Assembly: GCA_038206295.1 (NCBI GenBank)
Contig: JBBRAZ010000005.1
Span: 50,447 to 114,446 of the forward strand
DNA length: 64,000 bases
Direction of reading: 5' to 3'
From: Acidimicrobiales bacterium
Lineage (GTDB): Bacteria > Actinomycetota > Acidimicrobiia > Acidimicrobiales > JBBRAZ01
Position 1 is the first letter of the stretch, and the number at the start of each line of letters is the position of its first letter. Position numbers and translations under genes: made by a program. The notes under the pieces were generated by a model that saw only the letters and a list, made by a program, of their open reading frames with translations, was not told where the DNA came from and did no database searches. Shown piece by piece: positions 4,334 through 57,331 of this stretch.

Positions 4334-5250
4334 TGGCGCGGGGCGTCGAGCGCTCGCCGGCCGCGGTCGGCTTCATCGGCCTCGGGCAGATCGGCGCGCC
4401 GATGGCCACGCACCTGCTGGGGTGGCCCGGCGGGCTCGTGGTGCACGACCTCCGCCCCGAGGCGGTGGAGCCCCTGGTGCGCGGGGGAGCGACGGAGGCC
4501 GAGTCGATCGCCGCGCTGGCGTCGGTGTGCGGGGTCATCTCGGTCATGGTGCGCGACGACGACCAGGTGTGGGACGTCGTGGCCGGTCCCGAGCGCGACG
4601 GCACCGCCGGCATCCTCGCCAGCGCGGCGCCCGGCACGGTCGTCGCGGTGCACTCCACGATCGGGGCGGACACCGCCGAGGCGCTCGAGGAGCTGGCCCG
4701 TCGCTTCGACGTGCACGTGGTCGACGCGCCGGTGAGCGGCGGGTTCATGGGCGCGCACGCCGGGACCTTGGCGGTGCTCGTGGGCGGCGACTCGCTGGCG
4801 GTCGACCGCTGCCGGCCGACGTTCGACCTGTGGGCCGGCCTCGTGGTCCACCTCGGGCGGATCGGCAACGGCACCCGCGGGAAGCTGGCGCGTAACCTCC
4901 TGCACTTCGTGGCCTTCGGCGCCGCGTTCGAGGCGTCGCGGCTGGCAGAGGCGGCCGGGCTCGACCTCCAGCTCCTGGCGCAGGTGGTGAAGCACTCCGA
5001 CGCCATCACCGGCGGGCCGGGGGCGATCTTGGTGCGGCGCGCCACGGGGCCTCTGGCTGCCGATGATCCGCTGCGGCCGATCTTCGAGCACACGCGGGAC
5101 CTGGGGGAGAAGGACCTGCGCCTGGCGCTCGAGCTCGGTGCCGAGCTCGGGGTGGATCTGCCGCTGGGCACGCTGGCGCTCGAGGTGCTGGCGGACGGCC
5201 TCGGCGTGGGGCGCAGCGATGGCAGCGACGAGGAGGGGAGCAGCACGTGA
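4330..5250 (+). CDS. NAD(P)-binding 3-hydroxyisobutyrate/6-phosphogluconate dehydrogenase-family oxidoreductase
   Basis: VGFIGLGQIGAPMATHL dinucleotide-binding N-terminus and VDAPVSGG motif. The ATG overlaps the SDR stop (ATGATG). Confidence 0.85.
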   Translation: MMARGVERSPAAVGFIGLGQIGAPMATHLLGWPGGLVVHDLRPEAVEPLVRGGATEAESIAALASVCGVISVMVRDDDQVWDVVAGPERDGTAGILASAAPGTVVAVHSTIGADTAEALEELARRFDVHVVDAPVSGGFMGAHAGTLAVLVGGDSLAVDRCRPTFDLWAGLVVHLGRIGNGTRGKLARNLLHFVAFGAAFEASRLAEAAGLDLQLLAQVVKHSDAITGGPGAILVRRATGPLAADDPLRPIFEHTRDLGEKDLRLALELGAELGVDLPLGTLALEVLADGLGVGRSDGSDEEGSST

Positions 5251-5639
5251 GCGAGGATCCACGACGGGCCCGGGGGCTCGAGCAGATGAAGGCCGTCTAC
5301 GGCTGGGACATCGGCGAGGTGCACGGCGACTTCCTGGCCGCGACCGTCGACCACCTCTTCGGCGACGTGTGGGCGCGCGACGGCATGTCGCTGCGAGAGC
5401 GGCGGCTGCTGCTGCTCGGCGTGCTGGCCGGGCAGGGCAAGGGCGACGTGCTGGGCATCCAGGTGGACGCCGCGCTGCGCCAGGGCGACCTGACGCCCGA
5501 TGACCTCGAGGACGTGGTGCAGCTCGTGGCGCACTACGCCGGGTGGCCGATGGGGGCGACGCTGAACCAGATCGTGATGGAGGCGGTGGCGCGGAACCAG
5601 CCGCCGACCGACGCGGCGGCCGACGGCGACGAGGCCTGA
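5247..5639 (+). CDS. Carboxymuconolactone decarboxylase (CMD/AhpD-like) family protein
   Basis: 130 aa. GTG start overlaps the upstream stop (GTGA). The sequence DHLFGDVWARDGMSLRERRLLLLGVL...VAHYAGWP is typical of the CMD family. Confidence 0.8.
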   Translation: MSEDPRRARGLEQMKAVYGWDIGEVHGDFLAATVDHLFGDVWARDGMSLRERRLLLLGVLAGQGKGDVLGIQVDAALRQGDLTPDDLEDVVQLVAHYAGWPMGATLNQIVMEAVARNQPPTDAAADGDEA

Positions 5640-5655
5640 TGGGGGACCGGCGCTG

Positions 5656-6978
5656 ATGTCCGTCGAGGACCTGGGGCGCGCCGAGCTGGCGACCCTCGTG
5701 CGCGAGCACCTGCTCGCCGGGCACCTCATCGACCGCGCCGGCATGCCGCACGTGCTGGGGGCGCACGGCGCCGATGGCATGGGTGCGGTCGCCATCGACG
5801 AGTGGATGGGCGCCAGCCCCGTGTACTCGCGACGGATGCGCACGCTGCTGCGCATCGAGGGCGACGACGTCGAGGCGATCTTCAAGGGGATGCAGCTCGA
5901 CATCGGGGCGCCGCCGCAGTTCCTCGACTTCCGCTACGAGGTGATCGACGCCACCCGCGGCGAGTTCCGCTTGGCGAGCTGCGGCGCGCTGCTGGACGCG
6001 GAGCCGATGGGCGACGAGATCGTGCACCTCATGTGCCACACCATCGAGGACCCGACGATGGACGCCACCGCGTGGGCCACGAACCCGCGAGCGCGGATGC
6101 GCCCGGCGCACCGGCCGCCGCGGGTGCCCGGCGAGCACGAGGAGCACTGCCGGTGGGTGGTGACGATCGACCCGGAGGTGGAGCCGGTGCCCGAGCCGGC
6201 GCCGGTGGCGCGCGTGCTCGCCACGCAGGCCGCTCAGCTGCCGCTGGCGGACCCCGGCGCGGTGCGGTCGCTCGCAGGTGACGACGAGGGGGCGACCGCT
6301 TACGACGGTGCGCTGCAGGACGACATCGACCTGGCGGGGTTCGCTCGCCCGACGTTGGTGGCGGTCGACGACGAGGTGTGCCTGCAAGGGCACCTGCTGG
6401 TGCTGTCGGGGCTGATCGCGGTCGCGGAGCGCTGGGGGCACGAGCTGGCGACCGAGGTCGGGGTGCAGCAGCTGGTGGGATCTGCCGGGGTGGTGGCCGA
6501 GCGCCTGGTGAGCGCTCGGGGGCTCGCTATGCCGGGTGGCGGCGGCGTCGGGGGCGCCGAGGGGGGCGTGGGAGCCGCGGGCGCGATCGTCGAGCTGCTG
6601 GCGCTGCACCCGGCGCTCCTGCCGCAGCGGTACACCGGCGTGACGGTGGAGGCCGTGGACGCTGTCGGCGACGTGGCTGCGGGCGGGAGCGGCGCGACGG
6701 TGCGCCTGCGCCTCGCGGCCGACGCGCCAGCCCTCGCCGAAGCCGCGCCGGGCGGGTGGCTGATGCTGCTGGCGGACCCGGCCAGCGGAGCGGATGTGGC
6801 GCTCGATGCCATCGTGGCGGCGGTCGACCCGACGGCTCGGATGCGCCGCGTGGAGCCCGCCGTCGGCGACGCCGTCACGTGGGAGCTCGCCCACGACGTC
6901 GCACCGCTGCCCGAGCCGGGCGTCGTCTCGGTGGTGCGGTTCAGCACCGGCGCCGAGTTCCGCTTCGACGACCGCTGA
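5656..6978 (+). CDS. Hypothetical protein; Cys/His-containing N-terminal domain plus Ala/Gly-rich C-terminal half
   Basis: 440-aa ORF starting 16 nt after the CMD gene on the same strand. I recognise no family. The N-terminal ~190 aa look globular (…CGALLDAEPMGDEIVHLMCHTIEDP…EHCRWVV). Confidence 0.55.
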   Translation: MSVEDLGRAELATLVREHLLAGHLIDRAGMPHVLGAHGADGMGAVAIDEWMGASPVYSRRMRTLLRIEGDDVEAIFKGMQLDIGAPPQFLDFRYEVIDATRGEFRLASCGALLDAEPMGDEIVHLMCHTIEDPTMDATAWATNPRARMRPAHRPPRVPGEHEEHCRWVVTIDPEVEPVPEPAPVARVLATQAAQLPLADPGAVRSLAGDDEGATAYDGALQDDIDLAGFARPTLVAVDDEVCLQGHLLVLSGLIAVAERWGHELATEVGVQQLVGSAGVVAERLVSARGLAMPGGGGVGGAEGGVGAAGAIVELLALHPALLPQRYTGVTVEAVDAVGDVAAGGSGATVRLRLAADAPALAEAAPGGWLMLLADPASGADVALDAIVAAVDPTARMRRVEPAVGDAVTWELAHDVAPLPEPGVVSVVRFSTGAEFRFDDR

Positions 6979-7077
6979 GCCGGGCGGTCAACGAGTCGCT
7001 GCAGAGGCCTGGGGGCTACGGTCAGGCGCGGAGCCGCACACCGCGCTCGGGCAGCGACGTGCCGATAGGGTCCGCTC

Positions 7078-7533
7078 GTGGCCGACCGCGAACCCGATGC
7101 CGACACAGACGACGACACCGACGCCGACCAGCTGGACGATCCCGAGGCCCTCGCCGTCCTCGAGGTGCAGCGCCGGTTCTACGAGGCGTTCGAATCCCGC
7201 GATCTCGACGCCATGTCGGAGGTCTGGGAGCACAGCGATCGCGTCACCTGCGCCCACCCGGGATGGGCGCCGCTGCACGGCTGGGGCGCGGTCGTGGCGT
7301 CGTGGCTCGGCATCTTCTCGGGTCCGCAGCGCCTCCAGTTCATCGTCACCGACGAGCGCGCCGTCGTCGCCGGCGACATCGCGTGGGTGACCGCCGAGGA
7401 GAACCTCCTCGACGGCGCGGACGGGGCGGCGGTGGCCGCGATCAACCTCTACGCCCGCGACGACGAGGGGCGGTGGCGCATGGTCGCCCACCAGGGCGGT
7501 CCGGTCAGCCCCGAGGCGCCCCGCCAGCGCTGA
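7078..7533 (+). CDS. SnoaL-like/DUF4440 (NTF2 fold) protein with acidic N-terminal tail
   Basis: The sequence LEVQRRFYEAFESRDLDAMSEVWEHSDRVTCAHPGW...GRWRMVAHQ is typical of DUF4440/SnoaL_3. GTG start. Confidence 0.75.
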   Translation: MADREPDADTDDDTDADQLDDPEALAVLEVQRRFYEAFESRDLDAMSEVWEHSDRVTCAHPGWAPLHGWGAVVASWLGIFSGPQRLQFIVTDERAVVAGDIAWVTAEENLLDGADGAAVAAINLYARDDEGRWRMVAHQGGPVSPEAPRQR

Positions 7534-7649
7534 AGGTTTCCGGCGCCTGGCGTCTGCTGAGGAGGCCGGTGGGCGGTCGGCCCGACCACCCCGGTAGGCT
7601 CCGAATCGTCCGGCGGGCTGTCGCGGACGAGGGACCGAGGGGGTCGACC

Positions 7650-9056
7650 ATGACCGACACTGCTGATCGCACCGACCACGCGACCGCGTACGCCGAGGTG
7701 GTGCAGGGGGTCCGCGACGTCTACGCGTCCGGCCGCACCCGACCCATCTCGTGGCGCAAGGCGCAGCTCGACGGGATCCTTCGGATCCTCGTCGACCACG
7801 AGGACGAGCTCGTCGCGGCCCTTGCTGAGGACCTGGGCCGCCCCGGCGCCGAGGCCTTCCTCGCCGACATCGGCCACGCCCGCGTCGAGGTCAAGTACCT
7901 GCGCAAGCACGTCGCCGACTGGGCGAAGCCGCAGAAGGTGAACCCGGGCCTCACGTCGCAGCCGGGCAAGGGACGCATCATCGCCGAGCCCCTCGGCGTG
8001 GCGCTGATCATCGCCCCGTGGAACTACCCGGTGCAGCTCCTACTCGAGCCCCTCGCCGCCGCGGTCGCCGCCGGCAACTGCGTCGTGGCCAAGCCATCGG
8101 AGCTGGCGCCGGCGTGCTCGGCGGTGCTCGCCCGCCTCATCCCGCGCTACCTCGACGACGAGGCGGTCGTGGTGGTCGAGGGCGCGGTGCCCGAGACGAC
8201 AGCCCTGCTCGAGCAGCAGTTCGATCACATCTTCTTCACCGGGTCGACCGATGTCGGTCGCATCGTCATGCGCGCTGCGGCCGAGCACCTCACGCCGGTC
8301 ACCCTCGAGCTCGGTGGCAAGAGCCCGACCATCGTCGCCGCCGATGCCGACCTCGACGTCGCTGCCCGCCGCATCGCCTGGGGCAAGCTCCTGAACGCCG
8401 GCCAGACGTGCATCGCGCCTGACTACGTGCTGGCCGAGCGCTCCATCCGCGACGAGCTCGTCGACAAGATCGGCAAGGCCATCGACGGCTTCTACAAGGG
8501 CGACCCGAAGACGTCGGTCGACTACGGCCGCATCGTCAACGAGCGCCACCTCGGCCGCCTCCAGGGCCTGCTGGCGGACCACGGCGGCACCGTCGCCCTC
8601 GGCGGCGACGTCGACGAGAGCACGAAGTACCTGGCGCCGACGGTCGTGATCGACCCCGACGTCGACAGCAAGCTGATGAACGAGGAGATCTTCGGCCCGA
8701 TCCTGCCGGTGCTCGCCGTCGATTCGGTCGAGGAGGCCATCGGCTTCGTCACCGCCCGCCCCAAGCCGCTCGCGCTCTACGTCTACAGCCGCTCCGACGC
8801 GCTGGTCGACGACGTGCTGGCGCGGACCTCCTCGGGCGGCGCGTGCGTCAACCACTGCCTGATGCACATCGTGTCGGACAAGCTCCCGTTCGGCGGCGTG
8901 GGCCCGTCGGGCATGGGCGCCTACCACGGCAAGTCGGGCTTCGACGTCTTCAGCCACCACAAGTCGGTGCTGATCAAGTCCACGCGCCCGGACCCGCCGA
9001 TCATGTACCCGCCGTACACGGCGCTGGCCCAGAAGCTGATGCGCAAGCTCTTCTGA
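7650..9056 (+). CDS. Class-3-like (fatty/aromatic) aldehyde dehydrogenase
   Basis: Motifs IAPWNYP, FTGSTDVGR, ELGGKSP, NAGQTCIAPDY (catalytic Cys) and EEIFGPILP. ATG at 7650 lies within the longer track ORF. Confidence 0.9.
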   Translation: MTDTADRTDHATAYAEVVQGVRDVYASGRTRPISWRKAQLDGILRILVDHEDELVAALAEDLGRPGAEAFLADIGHARVEVKYLRKHVADWAKPQKVNPGLTSQPGKGRIIAEPLGVALIIAPWNYPVQLLLEPLAAAVAAGNCVVAKPSELAPACSAVLARLIPRYLDDEAVVVVEGAVPETTALLEQQFDHIFFTGSTDVGRIVMRAAAEHLTPVTLELGGKSPTIVAADADLDVAARRIAWGKLLNAGQTCIAPDYVLAERSIRDELVDKIGKAIDGFYKGDPKTSVDYGRIVNERHLGRLQGLLADHGGTVALGGDVDESTKYLAPTVVIDPDVDSKLMNEEIFGPILPVLAVDSVEEAIGFVTARPKPLALYVYSRSDALVDDVLARTSSGGACVNHCLMHIVSDKLPFGGVGPSGMGAYHGKSGFDVFSHHKSVLIKSTRPDPPIMYPPYTALAQKLMRKLF

Positions 9057-9078
9057 GCCCACCCCCTGCGCCCCCACC

Positions 9079-9194
9079 TCTGTGCGTACCTGAGTGAGCG
9101 TTTCGCGCACGCACCTACGCATGGACGCCCGGCTCGGCATCTGTGCGTACCTGAGTGCGCGTTTCGCGCACGCACCTACGCATAGACGCCCGGC
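9079..9194. repeat. Two tandem copies (61-bp period) of a hairpin-forming intergenic repeat
   Basis: tctgtgcgtacctgagtg(a/c)gcgtttcgcgcacgcacctacgcat(g/a)gacgcccggc occurs at 9079 and 9140 with only two differences. Each copy has imperfect inverted arms, tgcgtacctgagtg / cacgcacctacgca. Confidence 0.85.
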
Positions 9195-9225
9195 ATGGGG
9201 CGGAGTCGCTCGGTAGCCTCCGGCC

Positions 9226-10773
9226 ATGGCCGTGACCGAGACCTCCCGCCCCGACCCCGATGTCCACCGCGAGCACGTCGCCCAGGCGCGTGCCGCGCTG
9301 CTCGACCCCGCGGTCGAGAGGATCGTCGAGATGGTCATCGGCCACGACGCCGAGACCGACACCTTCGACGTGGCCGCACCCGACGGCAGCGTCCGCTTCG
9401 GTCGCACGCCCGATGGGGACCACTGGCGCTTCGAGGTGCTCGAGGTCGCTGGCCGCGACCCGCTCGGCAACCAGGACGCCGGCCACCTCGCCCCGATCGA
9501 AGCCGAGCTCGAGGTGCGCCACCCGCACCGCACCGCCAACGCCTACCCCTACGCCTTCGAGACGATCGCGCAGCTCTTCGACGCCGCGTCGCCGCCGGAT
9601 CTGATCTCGGTGCACACCGCGGCGCACAACTGGGAGGACCAGGGCGGGCATCGCGGCGAGCACGGCTCGCTGGATGTCATCCAGGCCCGCGCCCCGTTCA
9701 TCATCGCCGGCGCCGGCGTGCGCAGCGACGGCCTCGTCGACCGCTCGTGCCGCCTGGTCGACGTGGCGCCGACGGTCGCCGCGCTCATGGGCGTGGCCGA
9801 GCGCACCGGCACCGGCGAGAGCGGCCAGGTGCGCGAAGACGCGCTGCTGGCGCGCCAGGACGGCGACGTGCTGCGCGATGTGCTCGACGAGCGCGAGGCG
9901 GCGCCGCGCCACGTCGTGGGCTTCCTCCTCGATGGAGCGAACGCCAACGTGCTCTACGCGGCGGCGGCCTCGGGCCTGGCGCCGAACATCGCTCGGCTCA
10001 TGGCCATGGGCACCTCCTACCGGCACGGCGCGATGAGCTCGCTGCCCACCGTGACCTTGGCTAACCACACGTCGATCCTCACCGGCGCGCACCCCGGCCA
10101 CCACGGCATCCTCCACAACGCCTGGTGGGACCGCGGCACCCAGCAGCAGATCGTCACCAACTCGCCGGCGCACTGGATGACGGCGATGGCCGGGCTCGAC
10201 CCCGGCGTCGAGACGCTGTTCCAGGCCATCGAGCGCACCTGGCCCGGCGACGTCACCGCCTCGGTCAACGAGCCGTGCGACACCGGCGCGACGTACACGA
10301 CGATGGGCCGGCTGCGGGCGGGGGAGATGCCCGACCGCCCGCCGGCGGTCATCCCCCACACGACCGAGCGCTTCGTGCGCCCGGACAAGGAGTACACCTG
10401 GTCGACGAAGATCGACCACACCGCGGTCGAGCAGGTCGTCGGGTTGTGGAGCGGGCAGTACGGGGGGCGCGAGTGGCCGCTGCCGCGCTTCTCGTGGGTG
10501 AACTTCAGCCTCACCGATGCCGCGCTGCACGAGGGGGGACCGCACAGCGAGGTGGCCGAGGCCGCCATCCGCGACACCGACGGTCGCCTCGGCGAGGTGC
10601 TCGCCGCTGTCGAGCGCTCCGGGCGGTGGGATCAGACGGCGTTCTTCCTCGTGGCCGACCACGGGATGGAGGAGTCGAACCCCGAGGTCACCGGCAACTG
10701 GGCCGACGCCCTCGACGCCACCGGACTCGCGTACCGCGACGAGGGCTACGGCTTCATCTACGTCAACCCGTAG
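9226..10773 (+). CDS. Alkaline-phosphatase-superfamily enzyme (nucleotide pyrophosphatase/phosphodiesterase type)
   Basis: NPP-type motifs GFLLDGANANVL, SLPTVTLANHTSILTGAHPGHHGI and FFLVADHGME. The N-terminal 220 aa carry GEHGSL...APFIIAGAGV...VDVAPTVAALMGV, which normally lies C-terminal of the DHGM motif. Confidence 0.8.
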   Translation: MAVTETSRPDPDVHREHVAQARAALLDPAVERIVEMVIGHDAETDTFDVAAPDGSVRFGRTPDGDHWRFEVLEVAGRDPLGNQDAGHLAPIEAELEVRHPHRTANAYPYAFETIAQLFDAASPPDLISVHTAAHNWEDQGGHRGEHGSLDVIQARAPFIIAGAGVRSDGLVDRSCRLVDVAPTVAALMGVAERTGTGESGQVREDALLARQDGDVLRDVLDEREAAPRHVVGFLLDGANANVLYAAAASGLAPNIARLMAMGTSYRHGAMSSLPTVTLANHTSILTGAHPGHHGILHNAWWDRGTQQQIVTNSPAHWMTAMAGLDPGVETLFQAIERTWPGDVTASVNEPCDTGATYTTMGRLRAGEMPDRPPAVIPHTTERFVRPDKEYTWSTKIDHTAVEQVVGLWSGQYGGREWPLPRFSWVNFSLTDAALHEGGPHSEVAEAAIRDTDGRLGEVLAAVERSGRWDQTAFFLVADHGMEESNPEVTGNWADALDATGLAYRDEGYGFIYVNP

Positions 10774-10782
10774 GCTCCGCGC

Positions 10783-11244
10783 ATGATCGTCGACCCGTCA
10801 GCGTCCGCCTCCACCTCGCCGCTGGTGCCCGGTGCGATGGCGATGCCCGGTGCAGCGGCGCTGCTCAGCGGGGCGATCGAGTCGGCCGCCACCCGGCGCT
10901 CCCGCCTCGGGCTGGCCGCGCTCATGGTGGGCGCGGGCGTGCTGCACTTCGTGATCCCCAAGTTCTACGAGGAGCTCATCCCGGGCTGGTTGGGCAACCG
11001 GCGGGCGTGGGTCTACGGCAGCGGCGTGGCCGAGCTCATCTGCGGGGCGATGCTGGTGGTGCCGCGCACCCGCCGGCTCGGTGCGTGGGCGACGCTCGCG
11101 CTGCTGGTGCTCGTGTTCCCCGGCAACATCAAGATGGCGCTGGACGCCGGCGCCCCGCACGACGCCGAGTCGTGGGGCGCGTGGCTGCGCCTCCCGGTGC
11201 AGATCCCCCTCTGGCGCTGGGCGCACAAGCACACCCGTCCCTGA
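10783..11244 (+). CDS. DoxX-like family membrane protein
   Basis: LHFVIPKFYEELIPGWLG...GSGVAELICGAMLVVPRTRR...VFPGNIKMAL is the typical DoxX_2 pattern. Four hydrophobic segments. The start may be one of the downstream Met codons. Confidence 0.7.
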   Translation: MIVDPSASASTSPLVPGAMAMPGAAALLSGAIESAATRRSRLGLAALMVGAGVLHFVIPKFYEELIPGWLGNRRAWVYGSGVAELICGAMLVVPRTRRLGAWATLALLVLVFPGNIKMALDAGAPHDAESWGAWLRLPVQIPLWRWAHKHTRP

Positions 11245-38393: not shown

Positions 38394-40097
<1,704 letters not shown>

Positions 40098-40143
40098 GGC
40101 GCCAGAGGGTAGCGGTCGCTGCGCGCGCCTCGGCCCGGACGCG

Positions 40144-40182
40144 CACGACCCCCCGCACCGGCATCCGGTGCGGGGGGTCGTG
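40144..40182 (-). terminator. Perfect 18-bp-stem hairpin downstream of the NYN-domain gene
   Basis: cacgaccccccgcaccgg-cat-ccggtgcggggggtcgtg lies 16 nt after the stop at 40198 and upstream of ettA. No U-tract. Confidence 0.6.
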
Positions 40183-40197
40183 TCGAAGCCAGATGGG

Positions 40198-41544
40198 TCA
40201 GCGCCGCTTGGCTGCTGCCTTCTTCTTGGCTGGTGCCTTCTTCTTGGCCGGAGCCTTCTTCTTGGCTGGGGCCTTCTTGGCAGGTGCCTTCTTCTTGGCT
40301 GGTGCCTTCTTCTTCGCGGGCGCCTTCTTCGCAGGTGCCTTCTTCTTGGCCGGAGCCTTCTTCTTCGCGGGCGCCTTCTTCGCAGGTGCCTTCTTCTTGG
40401 CCGGAGCCTTCTTCTTCGCTGCCTTCTTCTTCGCTGGTGTCACCGGCGCCTCCTCGGCGTTGAGTGGATCCGCAGATTTTCTACCATCCTCATCGCCATC
40501 GGTGCGGGAACGAACATCGGTTGTGGCCGGTTCGAGCTCTTCGATGACGCCGAGAGCGGGTGCGACATCGATGCCGTGACGGTCGCCGTCGACCGATGTG
40601 ATCGTGAACCGGTACCTCCCACCGAGTCGCAGCACCGACCGCGCGCTCGGCGGCGCAGGGTCGCCGAGCGCGACGACGGGCACGTAGCAGCTGATGCCAT
40701 CGACATCGATGTAGGCACCGTGCGAGGAGAACCGGTCGACCGTTCCGACGACGTCGGCCCCCGGGGGGTTGGCGCCGATGAACTCGAGGAACGGGAGGAG
40801 GTCGTTGATCGCCTCCAGCGGGCGCTGCGTGCCACGGGACCGGTTGCGCCCGCTGCCGCGCTGGCCATCCTTCGACGTCGCAGCGTCCTTGGGTGTGCTG
40901 GCGGCAGCGGCGCGCCCGCCGCCGCGGCCACGTCCGCCGGCGGGCGCCTTGGCCGCTTTCTTCGCCACCTTGCCGGTGTCGCCGACCTTCGGGGGGGCGC
41001 CGCTGGCGCTGACGATGACCTCATCGGGCTTCAGCCCCGTGACCTCGCTGGCCTTGCCGCGTCCGCCGCGTCCGCGTCCGCGGCCACCACCGCCACCACC
41101 TCGGGTGGCCTGGCGGCTGACGGCGCCGCGCACCGGCCTGCGGTACTCGAACACCCAGCCGATGCCGGTGATGGGCACGCCGCCCACGAGGCGACCGTCG
41201 TCGAACAGCCAGGTGTACTCGCCGTGGAACTCCTGGAAGGAGTCGTTGGAGAGGACCGTGGCGCCGACCTTGTCGGCGATCTTCAGGATGAAGGCGTCGC
41301 CGCGGCCGATGACGCCGGCTGGGGGGCGCACGAGCTCGCCGGCGAGCAGCGCCTCCTCGTAGAGGTCGCGCTCGGACGGATCGATGCGGTTCGGGAAGGT
41401 GGCGTCGACGACGACGGTCACCTGATCGAAGCTGTGGTCCTTCAGGAATGAGCGGACGGCCTCGTCGAGCTGCGCCAAGCTGGGCTTGGTGCGCCCCTCG
41501 GTCGCCAGGTTCGATCCATCGACGACCAGCTGGGTCTGTTTCAT
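40198..41544 (-). CDS. Zc3h12a/Regnase-like NYN ribonuclease domain - RGG-rich linker - S1-like domain - Lys/Ala/Pro-rich histone-H1-like tail
   Basis: The N-terminus QLVVDGSNLATEG...GDAFILKIADKVGATVLSNDSFQEFH...GRLVGG parallels the Regnase-1 NYN motifs ([26 protein letters not shown]). RGGGGGGRGRGRGGRG box. VGTVDRFSSHGAYIDVDGISCYVPV is S1-like. The tail is (APAKKK)n. AGGAG lies 12 nt before the ATG at 41544. Confidence 0.82.
   Translation of the reverse strand: MKQTQLVVDGSNLATEGRTKPSLAQLDEAVRSFLKDHSFDQVTVVVDATFPNRIDPSERDLYEEALLAGELVRPPAGVIGRGDAFILKIADKVGATVLSNDSFQEFHGEYTWLFDDGRLVGGVPITGIGWVFEYRRPVRGAVSRQATRGGGGGGRGRGRGGRGKASEVTGLKPDEVIVSASGAPPKVGDTGKVAKKAAKAPAGGRGRGGGRAAAASTPKDAATSKDGQRGSGRNRSRGTQRPLEAINDLLPFLEFIGANPPGADVVGTVDRFSSHGAYIDVDGISCYVPVVALGDPAPPSARSVLRLGGRYRFTITSVDGDRHGIDVAPALGVIEELEPATTDVRSRTDGDEDGRKSADPLNAEEAPVTPAKKKAAKKKAPAKKKAPAKKAPAKKKAPAKKKAPAKKAPAKKKAPAKKKAPAKKAPAKKKAPAKKKAPAKKKAAAKRR
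40201..40436 (-). repeat. In-frame tandem DNA repeat (51-nt period) encoding the PAKKKAPAKKKAPAKKA tail
   Basis: caggtgccttcttcttggc... recurs at 40281, 40332 and 40383 with near-identical units. More diverged copies flank them. Confidence 0.85.
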
Positions 41545-43970: not shown

Positions 43971-44005
43971 CGGGAGTGTCATACCCCCGGTCTTGAATCT
44001 CGTGC

Positions 44006-44995
44006 ATGACCACCTCACCTGCCCCACCCGCCACAGATCGAGCCGACAGGTGGCCGAGCCCGTTCCCTGGGGTCGATGCCCACCCGGTCGAGCGGCTCAT
44101 GCACCTCGCGGCGATGCAGCACGGCCTCGTCTCGACCTACCAGGCAGAGGTGATCGGTGTCGGGCGGTCGCGCCTCCAATCGATGCAGCGGCGCGGCGTG
44201 CTCATCCACGCGGGGCGAGGGGTCTGGGCCCTACCGGGATCGCCGGAGACCGAGCGCCAGGTGCTGCTGCGACCGTGCCTCTCCTACGGCGGCGTCGCCT
44301 CTCATCGAGCTGCGGGCTCGCTGCACCGCATCGAGGCGTGGACGGAGCGTCCCATCGAGCTGACTGTCGAGCGCTCGCGCTCGGTGGACGTCCCCGGTGG
44401 GATCGTGCATCGGACGCAGGACCTCATCGCCGACGACATCGTGATCATCGACTCGATCCCGGTGACGTCGCCAGCGCGAACGCTCGTCGATCTCGGCTCG
44501 GTCGTCCCGGCGGTCCTGGTGAGCAGGTCCGTCAACCACGCGCTCCGCCTCATGCTCACCACGATCGTCGAGCTGCAGCTGGTCGCGGACCGCGTTGGGC
44601 GGCACGGCCGGTCGGGAGCCGGCGTGCTGCGCCGCGTCCTCGATGGGAAGGTGGCTGAGCACCAGCTCATGGAGAGCCCGCTGGAGTCGGATTTCCTCGA
44701 CCTGTGCATCGTGCACGGCCTCCCGGCACCGTCGGTGCAGCACCCTGTGCGGGTGAACGGCAGGGATCGCAGGCTGGACGTCGCGTGGCCGAGCGTGAAG
44801 CTCTGCGTCGAGCTCCTCGGGTACGAGCATCACGGCCAGCGCGAGCGCTTCGAGGAGGACAGGAGGCGGACGAACGACCTGCAGCTCGCTGGGTGGACCG
44901 TGCTCGAGTTCACCGCCGATGACGTGCGCCGGCGTGGGTCCAGGACGATCTCCCTTGTGCTGCGGATGCTCGACCGACTGGGCTACCCGGGTTGA
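44006..44995 (+). CDS. AbiEi-like N-terminal (wHTH) domain plus C-terminal DUF559 (Vsr-like endonuclease fold) protein
   Basis: QHGLVSTYQAEVIGVGRSRLQSMQRRGVLIHAGRGVW...VTSPARTLVDL at the N-terminus. ESPLESDFLDLC...RLDVAWPSVKLCVELLGYEHHG...DRRRTNDLQLAGWTVLEF is the DUF559 pattern. Confidence 0.82.
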   Translation: MTTSPAPPATDRADRWPSPFPGVDAHPVERLMHLAAMQHGLVSTYQAEVIGVGRSRLQSMQRRGVLIHAGRGVWALPGSPETERQVLLRPCLSYGGVASHRAAGSLHRIEAWTERPIELTVERSRSVDVPGGIVHRTQDLIADDIVIIDSIPVTSPARTLVDLGSVVPAVLVSRSVNHALRLMLTTIVELQLVADRVGRHGRSGAGVLRRVLDGKVAEHQLMESPLESDFLDLCIVHGLPAPSVQHPVRVNGRDRRLDVAWPSVKLCVELLGYEHHGQRERFEEDRRRTNDLQLAGWTVLEFTADDVRRRGSRTISLVLRMLDRLGYPG

Positions 44996-49586: not shown

Positions 49587-50264
49587 TCAGGCGTCGTCCC
49601 CGCGGCTGCCGGTGTAGGCGACGATCATCGTCGTGGCCAGCGCGATCGCCAGCAGGGCGACGATGCCGCGCACCAGCACGACCTGATCCTCGAGGTCGTC
49701 GAGCTCCCGGTCGTCGTGCGAGGAGGCGACGACCGGTCCGCCGCCGTCATCTGCGCCGACCACGACCGTGGGACCTTCGGGCACCCCTGACGGCTCGTGC
49801 GACACGATGCCGAGCTCGGCCGCTGCGGCGCGCAGCGCCGCACCATCGCTGGTCGAGCACGAGATCGCGGCGAGGTAGCCCTCCTCCGGGTCGCGGTTCG
49901 CGACGATGCCGACTGGTTCCCCGATCGCCTCGAAGGTTCGCCCGCATTCGTCCGGGCCGCCACGTCCTGTCCGGATCTCGGTGATGATCTCGACGTCGCC
50001 GACGAGCACCTCGCGCACCGCCATGGTCCACTCGATCGGCGCCGTGGTGGCGTCGTCGAGCGAGCGCGACGAGACGGGTTCAGCGATGAAGACCGCATCC
50101 GCCGACTGCATCTGGCGCAGGGGGTCGGGCTGCACGCAGGAGCAGGCAGATGCCGCAGGTGCGAGCAGCAGCCCGGCGCCGAGCGAGAGCACGACCGCGG
50201 CGAGTCCGGCGGGGAGGGCGGCGCGGCGACGGGGACGACGGGTCGACGGCGTGGTCTCGGGCAT
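49587..50264 (-). CDS. Exported, C-terminally membrane-anchored protein consisting essentially of one TIMP/NTR-like CxC module (short paralogue)
   Basis: Signal peptide RRPRRRAALPAGLAAVVLSLGAGLLLAPAASA|CSCVQPDPLRQMQSADAVFIAEPV. Cys only at mature positions 1, 3, 67 and 96. Acidic linker. C-terminal TM helix IVALLAIALATTMIVAY. ATG at 50264. Confidence 0.75.
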   Translation of the reverse strand: MPETTPSTRRPRRRAALPAGLAAVVLSLGAGLLLAPAASACSCVQPDPLRQMQSADAVFIAEPVSSRSLDDATTAPIEWTMAVREVLVGDVEIITEIRTGRGGPDECGRTFEAIGEPVGIVANRDPEEGYLAAISCSTSDGAALRAAAAELGIVSHEPSGVPEGPTVVVGADDGGGPVVASSHDDRELDDLEDQVVLVRGIVALLAIALATTMIVAYTGSRGDDA

Positions 50265-51099: not shown

Positions 51100-52773
51100 T
51101 CAGCGCCTGCGGCCGGTGCGGAGGACGACCACGACGGCAATGAGCGAGGTCGCGACGGCAGACGCGAGCGCGACCGCCGGCCAGCGACTTCCGGATCCAT
51201 CCGCGGGGGCGCTGGCACCGATGGCCTCCTCGTCGCCCAGGTCCCCATCGCCTGCGTCCACGCTGCCGTTCGAATCCGTGTCGGTCGGCGCTGGTGCATC
51301 GTCGGCGGGTGGCTGGCCGTCGGCGAGCGAGCGCAGCTCGTCTCGCTCGTGCACCGCTGCCATGGTCTCGGTCACCTCGAGCGGCGCGTCGAGGCGCGCG
51401 ACGAGCGTCGGCCGCCACGCTGGAGCGAGGAGCACCTGCTCGACGACCTCGGGGGCGTCGACGTCCCACGTCGGGGTGCCGTCGCCGGCGAGCCCGATCC
51501 ACGTCGCGCCGTAGGACGACGATCGCTCCGGGTCGGGTGCACCCGCCACGGTGCGGGTGTGCACGCCTGATGGGTCGTGCACGCGACGCGCGCCCTCGCG
51601 CATCTCCAGCACCCGGGTGCCGTCGGCGGCGATGGCGACGCGAGTCACCTCGCCCGCGGGCTCGACCGGCCACGAGGCGGTCGAGGACAGGTCCGCGTCG
51701 ATCGTCAGCAGCTCGCGCACCGGGGAGAGCTGGTTGTCGCCGCTCACAAGCGCCGAGAGGCCGCCGTCGGGGTGGGGTACGAGGGCGCGCACCATCGTTC
51801 CAGTCTCGAGCGTCGCCACGGGCTCGAGCGCACCGGTGTCGAGATCCAGTCGGGAGAGGGCACCGCCTGAGGCCACGACTACCTGGCCGCCCGCCGTGAC
51901 TGCGACCTCGGCTGGCCCGCCGACGTCGACGCGGTGCACCTCGTCGCCGGTGTCGGTTCGCAGCACGGCGATGCTCCAGCCGTCAGCCTCGACCGACTGG
52001 TACGTCCCGACGGCGAGGCTCCCGTCGGGTGTGGCGCAGAGCAGTTCCGCCGGGCGAGCCTCACCGAGGCGAGCGAGCTCGGTGGAGGTGGAGGTGGCGG
52101 TGTCGCTCACCACGAGCGGCAAGGTGCGGTCGCCGTTGGGCTCCCATCGGTGGGCGAGCACCGTGCGACCGCCGGGGCAGATGGTCGCCTCCTCCGATTC
52201 GCTGGGCAGGGCGCGCCACGCGACGACGTCACCCCGTGCGTCGCGCAGCTGCACGCTGCTCGGCCCCACCTGCCACAGCGAGACCGACGTGGCGGGCCCA
52301 CGTGCCGTAGGCGCCGGCAGGTCGATCGCGATGCCGCGCAAGCCTTCGGGGGTGATGCTGCCGACGCAGGCACCGATCATCAGCAACCCGTCGCGGCTGC
52401 GAGTGGTCACGACCGCGGCCACGCCACCTGGTTGCGCCACGCTGCCGCACGAGGTCGAGTCGGTGAACACGGAGAGGTGCTCGACGGCGGCGCCGGTCGG
52501 GGTGGTCTCGTCGCCTGCCACCACCTCGTCCACCGCGAGGACCATCTCGATGAGCCTCGGGCGCATCGCGCTGTCGAGGTCGTCTCGCTCGTGCACCGCC
52601 TCGACCGTGCCGATCACCGCGACGTCACTCCTTCCGACGACCTCGGTGAGCGGCGGGGGCGGCGAGCAGCTGCATGCCTGCGCCCGCGGCGCGTGCACCA
52701 GCAGGGTTGTCACCGCGAGCACGGTGAGCACCGCGATGCCGGCAACTCGGCTGGTGCCGGTAGACGACGTCAC
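51100..52773 (-). CDS. Exported surface-anchored protein: N-terminal TIMP/NTR-like CxC module, ~350-aa repeat-rich (beta-propeller-like?) region, acidic linker, C-terminal TM anchor
   Basis: GTG start overlaps the upstream stop (GTGA). Signal peptide ...TLLVHAPRAQA|CSCSPPPPLTEVVGRSDVAVIGTVEAV. Module Cys at positions 1, 3, 76 and 103. C-terminus WPAVALASAVATSLIAVVVVLRTGRRR. Full-length paralogue of 52770..54413. Confidence 0.8.
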   Translation of the reverse strand: MTSSTGTSRVAGIAVLTVLAVTTLLVHAPRAQACSCSPPPPLTEVVGRSDVAVIGTVEAVHERDDLDSAMRPRLIEMVLAVDEVVAGDETTPTGAAVEHLSVFTDSTSCGSVAQPGGVAAVVTTRSRDGLLMIGACVGSITPEGLRGIAIDLPAPTARGPATSVSLWQVGPSSVQLRDARGDVVAWRALPSESEEATICPGGRTVLAHRWEPNGDRTLPLVVSDTATSTSTELARLGEARPAELLCATPDGSLAVGTYQSVEADGWSIAVLRTDTGDEVHRVDVGGPAEVAVTAGGQVVVASGGALSRLDLDTGALEPVATLETGTMVRALVPHPDGGLSALVSGDNQLSPVRELLTIDADLSSTASWPVEPAGEVTRVAIAADGTRVLEMREGARRVHDPSGVHTRTVAGAPDPERSSSYGATWIGLAGDGTPTWDVDAPEVVEQVLLAPAWRPTLVARLDAPLEVTETMAAVHERDELRSLADGQPPADDAPAPTDTDSNGSVDAGDGDLGDEEAIGASAPADGSGSRWPAVALASAVATSLIAVVVVLRTGRRR

Positions 52774-54413
52774 CGCTCACCCCTTCGGTCGAGCTCCATC
52801 GCTCCGGCACGGCGCCGCACCCCGAGCGCGATGCCGAGGCCGCCCATCGCCGCGGCGATCGCCGCCAGTGCGGCGAGCCCGTCGGCGGCTGCGACGCTCG
52901 CTGCAGGAGCCGTCGTCGCCTGCGCCGCGGGCCAGCCGTCGGGCAGCACGCGGGCGCGGAGCGCGTCGCGGGTGCGCACGCCTTGCAGCGCTGGGTCCAC
53001 CGGACGTTCGGGCACGAACCGGGCTGCGGTGCCCACCGGCACCACCAGATCCACCGACGTGTCGCCGGGCTCGGACCACGTGATCTCGCCGCCCGAGAGG
53101 CCGAGCCACACGGGCTGGTTCGCAGCCCTCGCCGACGAGGCTGCAGAGCGCTGCTGGTCGTCGGGCACGAAGCGACCGCGCACGGTGCCGTCGGGTGCGA
53201 GCAGCGTGGCGTGCAGATCGTGGTCGACGACGAGCAGCGAGCCGTCGGGAAGCGCCGTCACGTCGCCGTGCAGGTTGGGCTCGACGATGTCGATGGCGCT
53301 CGCTGTCGTCAGGCCGGGGTCGGTGCGAAGCATGGCGGCGTACGGCGGCGCGCCGGCAGTGACCGCCTCGGGGCTGGCGAGGAGCACCGCGACACCGCCG
53401 TCGACCAGGGCGACCGTCTCGATCGGGACCGCGTCTTCGGGGACCACCGCGATGGGTGACAGCCGGCCGGTCTTCGCGTCGAGCAGCTCGAGCGCCGCAT
53501 CGGAGGTGACCACGAGTTCGCCGTCCGCGGTGACGGAGACACCGCCTCCGTTCGGCGACGTGGTCTCGGAGATCGTGGCTCCCGTCGCGGCGTCGATGAC
53601 CGCGAAGCGCCGCGGCTCGTCGTCGGTGGCGTGGTGCGTCCGCACAAGGCGGCTGGCATCGCTCGCCGCGCACACGACGTCGCCCCCGCCTTCAGGAAGC
53701 GCGCCCGTGCGCAGCGTGCGGCGCTCCATCGTGGTGACATCGACGGTGACGAGCTGGTCTGGCTCGCCCGCACCCCACAGGTCGGCGATCACGACCTCGC
53801 CGCCGGGGCAGATCGACGCCTCGTGCGCGCCGCGCGGCAGCGCGCCCCAGGCGACGACCGCCCCGTGGATGTCTCGCAGCTGGAGGTCGCTCGGGCCCTC
53901 GCTCGATCCAGCGGTGACGAGCGCGACCGGACCCGCGCTGGGTGGTGGGGGCAGATCGAGCGCGATCCCATCCACGTCGTCGACGGCGATGGCTGGGACG
54001 CACCCCTCGACGAAGAGGCGTCCCCCGTCGCGGCTGAGGAGCACCACCTGCGGCCCCCCTCCCAGCTCGAGCTGCCCCTCGCTGCACCCCATGAGGGGGT
54101 CCTGGACGGTGATGACCGTGCCGGGGGCGATGCTCGAGCCCGGGTCATCCACCACGACGGCGTCGACGCGGAGCCGGCCCTGCCTGCGCATCCCCGAGCC
54201 CGGGAAGTCGTCGTCGACGCCGTGGTAGGGCGTGACGCTCTGTAGCTCGGCGACCAGGACCACGTCCGCGCTGCCCACGGCCTCGAGCGGCTCCTCGACG
54301 TAGCCGCACGAGCAGGCACCGGCGCGGTCGGGCAGCAGCACCACGACGATGGCGACGAGCACCGCGACGAGCACCGCGGCCTGGGCTCGCCGCGCCAGCG
54401 CACCCAGCGACAT
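52770..54413 (-). CDS. Exported surface-anchored protein, paralogue of 51100..52773 (TIMP/NTR-like CxC module, repeat-rich region, C-terminal TM anchor)
   Basis: The ATG shares one nucleotide with the upstream stop (TGATG). Signal peptide AAVLVAVLVAIVVVLLPDRAGA|CSCGYVEEPLEAVGSADVVLVAELQSV. Module Cys at positions 1, 3, 77 and 105. It shares LQLRDxxGxVVAWxALP......A.ICPGG with the paralogue. C-terminal TM LAALAAIAAAMGGLGIALGVRRR. Confidence 0.8.
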   Translation of the reverse strand: MSLGALARRAQAAVLVAVLVAIVVVLLPDRAGACSCGYVEEPLEAVGSADVVLVAELQSVTPYHGVDDDFPGSGMRRQGRLRVDAVVVDDPGSSIAPGTVITVQDPLMGCSEGQLELGGGPQVVLLSRDGGRLFVEGCVPAIAVDDVDGIALDLPPPPSAGPVALVTAGSSEGPSDLQLRDIHGAVVAWGALPRGAHEASICPGGEVVIADLWGAGEPDQLVTVDVTTMERRTLRTGALPEGGGDVVCAASDASRLVRTHHATDDEPRRFAVIDAATGATISETTSPNGGGVSVTADGELVVTSDAALELLDAKTGRLSPIAVVPEDAVPIETVALVDGGVAVLLASPEAVTAGAPPYAAMLRTDPGLTTASAIDIVEPNLHGDVTALPDGSLLVVDHDLHATLLAPDGTVRGRFVPDDQQRSAASSARAANQPVWLGLSGGEITWSEPGDTSVDLVVPVGTAARFVPERPVDPALQGVRTRDALRARVLPDGWPAAQATTAPAASVAAADGLAALAAIAAAMGGLGIALGVRRRAGAMELDRRGER

Positions 54414-54898
54414 CAACCGCACCACTCGTCGACCAGCGTGGCGAGCGCGGCGAGGTTGTCGCGCAGGCCGCTGACGATGGGGCGCTCGGCCTGGCGCCCG
54501 ACGATGGGCACGCGCACCGCCACGTCGCCGCTGCCGACGCGCACGCAGCCGTCGCGATCGGCCAGGAGCCGGCTGACCGCGGTGGCGTGCAGCTTGTCGG
54601 GGTAGTGGTCGGGGAGGATCGTGGTGTGGCCCTCGAATGCGTCTCGGTCCCACAGCGTGTCCTCGACCCAGCTGAGCCGCTGCGGATCGACCACCGCGGT
54701 GACCGCTCGGGGGAGGTCGCCGCGGAACCGGTAGCGCAGCCGGGTGCGCACCTCGCCGCCGCGCTCCTCGATGCCGACCACCTCGGGTGCGTGGGTGGCC
54801 GGCAGCTGCCCTACCGATGCCCAGAACCCGGCGTCGCACAGCGCGGCGAGCACCGCATCGGGCGTGGCGCTCAGGACGTCGCGGGTCTCGAAGCGCAT
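54413..54898 (-). CDS. SRPBCC-fold (DUF2505-like) protein
   Basis: 161 aa (MRFETRDVLSATPDAVLAALCDAGFW...). Size and pattern resemble actinobacterial DUF2505/polyketide-cyclase-like proteins. It starts 7 nt after the helicase stop. Confidence 0.6.
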   Translation of the reverse strand: MRFETRDVLSATPDAVLAALCDAGFWASVGQLPATHAPEVVGIEERGGEVRTRLRYRFRGDLPRAVTAVVDPQRLSWVEDTLWDRDAFEGHTTILPDHYPDKLHATAVSRLLADRDGCVRVGSGDVAVRVPIVGRQAERPIVSGLRDNLAALATLVDEWCG

Positions 54899-56986: not shown

Positions 56987-57331
56987 GTGCTCGACGTCCC
57001 CCTGGAGCGGTTCGAGGTGCTGGTCGGCGAGGCGCTCGACCTCCTTCCCGTCGACCTCGCGGCGCGCATCGACAACGTGGTGGTGCGGATCTGGGACGAC
57101 GCGCCGTGGGACGGCGTGCTCGGGCTCTACGAGGGCGTGCCGCTCACCGAGCGCGAGGCGGCGTACACCATGGTGCTGCCCGACCGGATCACGCTCTACC
57201 GCCTGCCGATACTCGAGCGGTGCACCACCGAGGACGACGTCATCGACGAGGTGCGCACCACGGTCGTCCACGAGGTCGCGCACCACTTCGGCATCGACGA
57301 CGACCGCCTCGAGGAGCTGGGCTGGGGCTGA
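56987..57331 (+). CDS. Minimal zinc metallopeptidase family protein (zinicin-like, DUF1025)
   Basis: 114 aa with HEVAHHFG (HExxH) near the C-terminus and ...ITLYRLPI... typical of this family. No signal peptide. GTG start. Confidence 0.75.
   Translation: MLDVPLERFEVLVGEALDLLPVDLAARIDNVVVRIWDDAPWDGVLGLYEGVPLTEREAAYTMVLPDRITLYRLPILERCTTEDDVIDEVRTTVVHEVAHHFGIDDDRLEELGWG

Follow-up and report, generated by a model that had tools for sequence, protein, structure and literature searches.

Three TIMP-like genes in the window

The DNA analysed in this work is a stretch of 64,000 nucleotides from contig JBBRAZ010000005.1 of an Acidimicrobiales bacterium, hereafter referred to as the window, whose G+C content is ~72% throughout. 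Three genes in the window, designated A, B and C (Table 1), encode proteins in which a predicted signal peptide is followed by a module that is, on solid profile evidence presented below, a true homologue of the N-terminal domain (N-domain) of TIMPs (tissue inhibitors of metalloproteinases), that is, an NTR module. The initial annotation of the window described A and B as two tandem and translationally coupled genes, in agreement with the arrangement found here: both genes are on the minus strand, and the TGA stop codon of B overlaps the GTG start codon of A as GTGA, with the sequence GAAGGGG located 7 nt upstream. Its count of two paralogues, on the other hand, overlooked the third and shorter one, C, which is located 0.8 kb downstream of A, with a convergent 4HBT thioesterase gene in between, and whose closest relative (P0009) is 51% identical to it.

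The gene structure is supported by NCBI gene calls, which are on record with identical products of 557, 547 and 225 amino acids for A, B and C, and the G+C content at third codon positions (GC3) in the called frames is 0.88, 0.89 and 0.87, respectively. B is contained in a longer open reading frame (ORF) of 689 amino acids, whose extension upstream of position 54413 is non-coding in that frame, its GC3 being 0.51, as compared with 0.89 within B. The stop codon of the DUF2505 gene upstream of B and the ATG of B share 1 nt, and this gene is probably on the same transcript as B.

The N-terminal junctions can be read directly from the sequence and are those that had been reported for A and B, with AQA and AGA, respectively, immediately preceding CSC. 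With a slash for the predicted cleavage site, they are ...APRAQA/CSCSPPPP in A, ...PDRAGA/CSCGYVEE in B and ...APAASA/CSCVQPDPLRQMQSADAVFIAEP (CSCVQPDP) in C. The mature positions of the four module cysteines were also given correctly for A (1, 3, 76 and 103) and B (1, 3, 77 and 105), and those of C are 1, 3, 67 and 96. The context of the third of these cysteines is STSCGS (A) or LMGCSEG (B), and A and B each contain two further cysteines in the downstream region. The signal peptides of most family members look Sec-type. As a separate observation, B (LARRAQAAVL) and C (TRRPRRRAALPAG; 50145-50264) each have an Arg-Arg motif in the signal peptide that would be readable as a weak Tat signal.

At the other end of the proteins, the C-terminal transmembrane (TM) helices with basic tails that had been proposed for A and B were found by hydropathy analysis, and the linker ahead of the TM helix of A is acidic. 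We rejected a sortase-anchored surface protein, because A, B and C have neither LPXTG nor LAXTG ahead of the TM helix and because all matches of the relatives to sorting-signal models were below the cut-off (Gram_pos_anchor, E=0.8; LAVTG, 19.4 against 27 bits; GVDTG, 15.7 against 29 bits).

Table 1. Positions in the window of genes A, B and C, of their predicted features and of the DUF2505 gene.
Feature	Coordinates	Strand	Description
DUF2505 gene	54413..54898	-	Pfam PF10698, E=8e-15; upstream of B
Gene B	52770..54413	-	547 amino acids, ATG start; long form: signal peptide, NTR/TIMP module, predicted beta-propeller, TM anchor
B signal peptide	54315..54413	-	Residues 1-33, ending in PDRAGA, then Cys34; supported by the family-wide xA/CxC junction
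B NTR/TIMP-like module	53958..54314	-	Mature residues 1-119
B beta-propeller, predicted	53214..53930	-	Approximate bounds, aligned to the A propeller; two further conserved cysteines
B C-terminal TM helix	52818..52874	-	Hydropathy 2.07 over 19 residues; followed by RRR... tail
Gene A	51100..52773	-	557 amino acids, GTG start; long-form TIMP-like protein
A signal peptide	52675..52773	-	Residues 1-33, ending in APRAQA, then Cys34
A NTR/TIMP-like module	52324..52674	-	Mature residues 1-117, N-terminus CSCSPPPPLTEVVGRSDVAVIG
A beta-propeller, predicted	51574..52296	-	Residues ~160-400, ~24 short strands
A C-terminal TM helix	51121..51183	-	Hydropathy 2.61; AlphaFold2 helix at residues 531-556; followed by RTGRRR tail
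Gene C	49587..50264	-	225 amino acids; short form: signal peptide, module, stalk/low-complexity linker, TM helix
C TM helix	49623-49679	-	C-terminal

A bacterial family homologous to TIMPs

An exhaustive HMMER search, in which a profile of the A, B and C modules was compared with 1.84 billion representatives, returned 13 genuine relatives besides A, B and C, together with one false positive (P0004), a 2154-amino-acid coiled-coil repeat protein that was rejected because its nine matching stretches were confined to profile positions 61-99. The layout common to the relatives consists of a signal peptide, the xA/CSC junction, a Cys at ~70 (usually ...ASCG...), a Cys at ~97 (...LC...) and, beyond a stalk, a TM helix; most of them are ~200 amino acids long, as is C, and three are ~550 amino acids long, as are A and B. 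Iteration with the 16-sequence alignment gave 66 proteins, and any names given to them were "hypothetical". When species-representative genomes were scanned with the short-form alignment, 18 loci were obtained. The named carriers at these loci are, among others, Nocardioides spp., Phycicoccus sp. Soil802, Propioniciclava tarda DSM 22130, Arachnia and Marmoricola, and further loci are found in metagenome-assembled genomes (MAGs), several of them of Nocardioidaceae and of unclassified Actinomycetota and one of Chloroflexota. The family thus extends over Actinomycetota, where it also includes Acidimicrobiia; Propioniciclava tarda DSM 22130 and Nocardioides limicola are among the cultured carriers of short forms. 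In addition, a low-GC member (P0015/P0085) is present on 43 contigs, as found by the HMMER search and a cluster look-up, outside the 18-locus scan.

A hidden Markov model (HMM) built from short forms only, with the window proteins excluded, detected C with 81.9, A with 54.3 and B with 38.8 bits, in scores that include the signal-peptide and TM regions. NCBIfam contains no model for the family, and its LIC_20196 exoprotein model, which matched with 16.8 bits against a cut-off of 230, was discarded as a weak and unproductive lead.

The features of the junction are highly conserved, as judged from the 77 members with CxC at the start. Ala occupies position -1 in every one of them, with no residues between the predicted cleavage site and Cys1 in any, and position -3 is a small residue in 76 (63 Ala, 10 Ser and 2 Val). 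The residues at position -2, which is more variable, are F (20 members), S (12), H (10), A (8), Y (8) and W (4), and also L, and position -4 is Pro in 43 members and Arg in A and B. The residue between the first two cysteines is Ser in 71 of the 77, the module contains exactly four cysteines in 75, and a C-terminal hydrophobic 19-mer with a basic tail is present in at least 62. The initial annotation had proposed conservation of the AxA/CxC junction and of the four cysteines in orthologues as a check, and the family-wide counts bear out both.

Among the window proteins, A matched the Pfam TIMP model (PF00965) with an E value of 0.025 and 14.8 bits (cut-off 23.1), residues 32-136 being aligned with profile positions 1-107. 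When a profile of the three paralogues was searched against the PDB, TIMP-2 ranked first with E=0.41. A family profile of 16 sequences, including A, B and C, searched against 177,635 PDB sequences, matched TIMP-2 (1br9) with E=1e-10 over residues 1-103, TIMP-3 with 1e-6 and TIMP-1 with 3e-6, and all 15 significant matches, with E values from 1e-10 to 8e-5, were TIMPs. The non-inhibitory NTR modules of agrin (NtA), PCOLCE, meteorin and complement (C345C) were not matched by this profile at E values up to 10. In the alignment, the bacterial cysteines correspond to Cys1, Cys3, Cys72 (AVCGV) and Cys101 (TLC) of TIMP-2, and Pro8 and the ADVV(F) strand are common to the family and TIMP-2, whose mature start, as given in the initial annotation, agrees with PDB entry 1br9. 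Some single relatives are also detected by PF00965: P0015 scored 31.6 bits, which is above the cut-off of 23.1, and P0005 22.7 bits, and 27 of 64 members matched at E<=0.01, with no competing family. Furthermore, the precomputed Pfam annotation of three members (P0044, P0080 and P0085) is already TIMP. The TIMP or NTR assignment that had been suggested for the modules of A and B is thus sustained by family-level matches to TIMPs. The term "mimics" that accompanied it has to be replaced, the relation being one of homology, and the claim of a new class was too strong for what is a bacterial branch of the TIMP/NTR family, some members of which are flagged by Pfam.

The Pfam and PDB alignments end at approximately profile position 107 of 183, and beyond this point the bacterial proteins continue with a stalk or a propeller and then the TM helix. 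The family has no Cys at the position of TIMP Cys13, which in TIMPs forms the third N-domain disulfide (Cys13-Cys124/126), and the four cysteines of the module are, by their alignment, placed for two of the three TIMP N-domain disulfide pairs, with the bonds themselves being predicted.

The predicted fold of the module is consistent with this assignment. An AlphaFold2 model of the mature A module, made from a 64-sequence alignment (pLDDT 79.5, pTM 0.73), has five main strands and flanking helices, and the module is, according to this model and as had been anticipated, an OB-fold five-stranded barrel with flanking helices. A Foldseek search of the PDB with the model retrieved NTR domains: agrin NtA was first (TM-score 0.69, E=2e-4), followed by TIMP-1 and TIMP-2 (TM-scores 0.55-0.62), meteorin NTR, PCOLCE NTR and the C345C domains of C3 and C4, and generic OB folds ranked below the NTR domains.

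The paralogous region that had been described downstream of the modules of A and B was also recovered (VQLRDARGDVVAW...ICPGG...), with the common block VQLRDARGDVVAWRALP...ATICPGG in A and LQLRDIHGAVVAWGALP...ASICPGG in B. This region, previously termed repeat-rich, is most likely a beta-propeller with a conserved extra pair of cysteines, because of the strands in the AlphaFold2 model, the propellers among the Foldseek matches and the weak Pfam propeller matches. The full-length model of A, which was made from only 5 sequences, is of moderate quality (overall pLDDT 60.9), and the pLDDT in blocks of residues 160-400 is mostly 70-90, with the lowest at 59-68. Foldseek with this region returned hundreds of propellers with E<1e-3 (MADH heavy chain, TolB, Kelch and WD40), at a low TM-score of ~0.3 over the whole query, and the Pfam matches of B were limited to weak ones with PQQ_2, SGL and NHL.

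The fusion of the TIMP-like module with a propeller is rare and, outside the window, was found only in P0012 and in three tandem genes on one contig (L026). A word-index search with full-length A returned A itself only, and the propeller alignment added essentially just P0012, in searches that were swamped by low-complexity words; a long-form scan of the contigs of species-representative genomes found nothing. A further candidate for a split fusion was rejected: on contig L027, a 590-amino-acid propeller-like protein is encoded at 9049-10821 (+), 450 bp downstream of a low-GC (Firmicute-type) short form with a clear Pfam TIMP match. This protein lacks a signal peptide, and its comparison with the propeller of A and B by hhalign gave a probability of only 35%.

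The L026 contig (Logan SRR28170463, 1-7135) is syntenic with the window, containing in order the DUF2505 gene, three long forms, the thioesterase gene on the opposite strand (64% identical to that of the window), a 66-amino-acid ORF and Xth. Located at the place of C in the window, the 66-amino-acid ORF is a remnant in which only the signal peptide and the TM helix are present. Long-form paralogues are 25-33% identical whether compared within or between genomes, and one-to-one orthology is not clear. The array of long forms is locally amplified by duplication and fast-diverging, and the fast divergence fits an interaction surface under pressure. Short forms are also found in tandem, in a Nocardioides MAG (L021; 4635-5399 and 5446-6051, both on the plus strand), where the first has the junction A/CTC and the second A/CSC, and therefore tandem duplication in this family is not unique to the window.

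Inhibition, binding and other explanations

In TIMPs, the N and O atoms of Cys1 chelate the catalytic zinc of the protease, and the disulfides C1-C70 and C3-C100 fix the N-terminal ridge in place. To our knowledge, inhibitory TIMPs are the only NTR modules that need CxC at a free N-terminus, and in the non-inhibitory NTR modules known to us CxC is not at the mature N-terminus. We tentatively favour the possibility, which we would place a little short of probable, that A, B and C are cell-surface metalloprotease inhibitors that act in the manner of TIMPs. The proteins would be type-I membrane proteins with a Sec-type signal peptide, whose cleavage after AxA by signal peptidase I would expose Cys1 of the CSC motif, with a free alpha-amine, as the mature N-terminus. 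This N-terminus would head an OB-fold module of ~105-115 amino acids, in which the putative disulfides Cys1-Cys~70 and Cys3-Cys~100 would pin the N-terminal ridge to the barrel. As extrapolated from the biochemistry of TIMP inhibition (PMC9409782, PMC9890683), the ridge would enter the active-site cleft of an extracytoplasmic zinc metalloprotease, where the amino and carbonyl groups of Cys1 would chelate the zinc and Ser2 would be placed at the entrance of S1'. A low-complexity stalk in C, and a beta-propeller together with a stalk in A and B, would keep the module at a distance from the membrane, and the C-terminal TM helix with its Arg-rich cytoplasmic tail would anchor the protein. The whole protein might thus serve as a surface inhibitor or trap, in which the propeller of A and B could be an exosite or a partner-binding domain.

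The strongest reason for favouring inhibition over mere binding is that, as described above, no member has any residue between the predicted cleavage site and Cys1, which is followed by Ser in most of them. Several results weigh against this possibility. In the ~25 loci that were examined, none of the family members has a linked protease gene, no secreted or envelope metalloprotease was found nearby, and the window contains no secreted HExxH protein. The housekeeping synteny of the short forms offers no clue to their function. On the side of the proteins themselves, the match of A alone is below the Pfam threshold and B and C have no direct TIMP match, so that the membership of the window proteins in the TIMP family rests on transitive, profile-level evidence; the third Cys of B is in a shifted context (GCSEG instead of SCG); and the third disulfide of the TIMP N-domain and the whole TIMP C-domain are absent. 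In addition, many NTR modules are non-inhibitory, and the cleavage site, the disulfides and the inhibition by the bacterial proteins are all predictions.

The search for a target protease, which was centred on the gene neighbourhoods, yielded no candidate. Near A and B, HExxH was found in one protein only, a small Zincin_1 protein (PF06262, HEVAHHFGIDDD) encoded at 56987-57331 (+). Two loci of Nocardioides type (L008, 8107-8481; L013, ~7284-7775) also have a Zincin_1 gene, which there, as in the window, is located 2-2.6 kb from a TIMP-like gene. The protein has no signal peptide and would be cytoplasmic and topologically separated from the module, and it was rejected as a target; because of the missing signal peptide, its proximity is probably conserved synteny and not an inhibitor-target pair. 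HExxH ORFs near the TIMP-like genes of two other loci (L021 and L023) were also rejected, as they encode a MobA-like NTP transferase and not a protease.

The neighbourhoods of the short forms fall into recurrent arrangements. In a Nocardioidaceae-type synteny (L001, L002, L007 and L021, at ~5000-8600 of each), the order is SerS, HAD, HAD, in some cases Pterin_4a, the TIMP-like gene and BPA (bacterial proteasome activator), the last on the opposite strand. In another clade (L004 and L006), the TIMP-like gene is located between a cystathionine gamma-synthase-like gene and CBS/PALP genes.

Two other elements of the window were recorded in the course of this analysis. An ORF at 43997-44995 (+), located among housekeeping genes, resembles the AbiEi_4 antitoxin at its N-terminus and DUF559/REase at its C-terminus, and an AbiEi_4-like gene is also found near the TIMP-like gene of L006. 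A tandem DNA repeat at 40207-40439, with a period of 51 or 18 bases, 4.3-13.6 copies and 78-91% matches, is located at the 5' end of a minus-strand ABC-F-type ORF (38394-40439), in which the repeat unit would encode a Lys/Ala/Pro-rich repeat.

Alternatively, the module may be a non-inhibitory NTR module for binding or adhesion, with a protein, a wall polymer or a glycan as the ligand, in which CxC was kept for structural disulfides only. We regard this as possible but rather doubtful. The absence of a protease partner from the examined neighbourhoods would be expected of such a module, the housekeeping synteny of the short forms suggests a role in envelope maintenance, and fusion with a beta-propeller, a typical interaction scaffold, fits binding. 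Furthermore, the best structural match of the A module is agrin NtA, which binds laminin, and the NtA domain of agrin, PCOLCE-NTR, netrin, sFRP and C345C modules all provide a precedent for a binding role. What argues against it is that the family profile matches TIMPs only and no other NTR family, and that neither the predicted cleavage directly at Cys1 in 77 of 77 members nor the prevalence of Ser2 would be required if the disulfides had a purely structural role.

It is improbable that the module binds a metal such as Cu or Zn, or acts as a thiol-disulfide relay, through Cys-Ser-Cys and perhaps the distal cysteines on a CusF-like OB scaffold. Metal binding is possible for CxC motifs, and CusF, a Cu/Ag-binding OB fold, was among the lower Foldseek matches of the A module (ranks 39, 49 and 50; TMt ~0.6), but TIMP and NTR domains rank well above it. 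Moreover, all four cysteines align with cysteines that are disulfide-bonded in TIMPs, extracytoplasmic cysteines in Actinobacteria are generally oxidised, and no metal-homeostasis genes were found as neighbours at the loci examined.

Lipidation of Cys1 by Lgt followed by processing by signal peptidase II, which would block the alpha-amine and which the initial annotation had named as evidence against its own proposal, is very improbable: a Cys directly follows the signal peptide and a few members, such as C with ...AASA/C, fit a very relaxed lipobox, but no lipobox ([LVI][ASTVI][GAS]C) was found, position -3 being mostly Ala or Ser among the 77 members instead of Leu, Val or Ile, position -2 often being F, H, Y, W, P or Q and position -4 being Arg in A and B, and the proteins already have a separate anchor in the C-terminal TM helix.

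If inhibition by A, B and C is taken up again as the favoured possibility, it may be extended to a more specific proposal, namely that the family consists of genuine bacterial TIMPs, membrane-tethered and blocking extracytoplasmic zinc metalloproteases by a free Cys1 amine, whose propeller-fused and fast-diverging array would fit an arms race with specific proteases of competitors, of predators or of the cell itself. This proposal is conceivable, yet we hold it with considerable doubt.

Relation to known inhibitors and significance

The closest counterpart of the bacterial module is the N-domain of the animal TIMPs (TIMP-1 to -4; PF00965; MEROPS I35), with which it shares a signal peptide followed by Cys-Ser/Thr-Cys, Pro8, the ADVV(I/F) strand, cysteines in (S/A)CG and LC motifs at the positions of the partners in C1-C70 and C3-C100, and the predicted OB barrel. 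In contrast to the animal proteins, the bacterial proteins have neither the C13-C124 disulfide nor the C-domain with its six cysteines, and they are TM-anchored and, in A and B, fused to a predicted propeller. The window proteins are therefore closer to N-TIMP-only proteins than to full TIMPs. Single-domain TIMPs that have the NTR module and no C-domain have been described in cnidarians (PMC4860685), and netrin-domain proteins have been described in hookworms (PMC9524151). These invertebrate and helminth proteins are similar to the bacterial ones in having the NTR module alone, with the TIMP C-domain absent, but they are secreted, eukaryotic and in some cases devoid of CxC, whereas CxC is near-invariant in the bacterial family, which is membrane-tethered. 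The non-inhibitory NTR modules of agrin (NtA), PCOLCE, meteorin and C345C have the fold that is predicted for the bacterial module, but they differ in being unmatched by the family profile.

Among bacterial proteins, the nearest functional analogues are potempin A and the serralysin inhibitors (AprI/Inh, MEROPS I38), which are small inhibitors with a beta-barrel that are either tethered to the envelope or kept within it. In AprI/Inh, the N-terminus enters the active site of the protease and reaches the zinc. The Tannerella forsythia inhibitor potempin A, which has an OB fold, is a membrane-anchored lipoprotein (PMC9890683), and the potempins, which are encoded beside their target peptidases, have a different, bilobal mechanism (PMC9890683). 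These inhibitors are unrelated to the TIMP-like family in sequence, and Pfam searches of the window proteins and their relatives gave no match to potempin or serralysin-inhibitor families. They also differ from the TIMP-like family in that no linked target gene was found for the latter at the loci examined.

TIMPs are treated as an animal or metazoan family in evolution papers and reviews (PMC9409782, PMC4860685, PMC10755359), and the literature searched here contained no paper about homologues of TIMPs in bacteria. Such homologues have not escaped the databases altogether, as the Pfam TIMP model already catches some bacterial members. The novelty is a bacterial, membrane-anchored branch of the TIMP/NTR family, which in the window is propeller-fused and tandemly amplified. 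This branch keeps the feature that defines the inhibitory mechanism of TIMPs, a CxC motif at the exact predicted signal-peptidase site. If the proteins do inhibit metalloproteases, they would represent a new type of defence against, or regulation of, proteases at the surface of bacterial cells and could provide small, disulfide-stabilised inhibitor scaffolds for engineering, and they would also have a bearing on the origin of the NTR/TIMP fold. If they are genuine bacterial TIMPs, the TIMP mechanism would not be a metazoan invention, and it would be either ancient or horizontally transferred.

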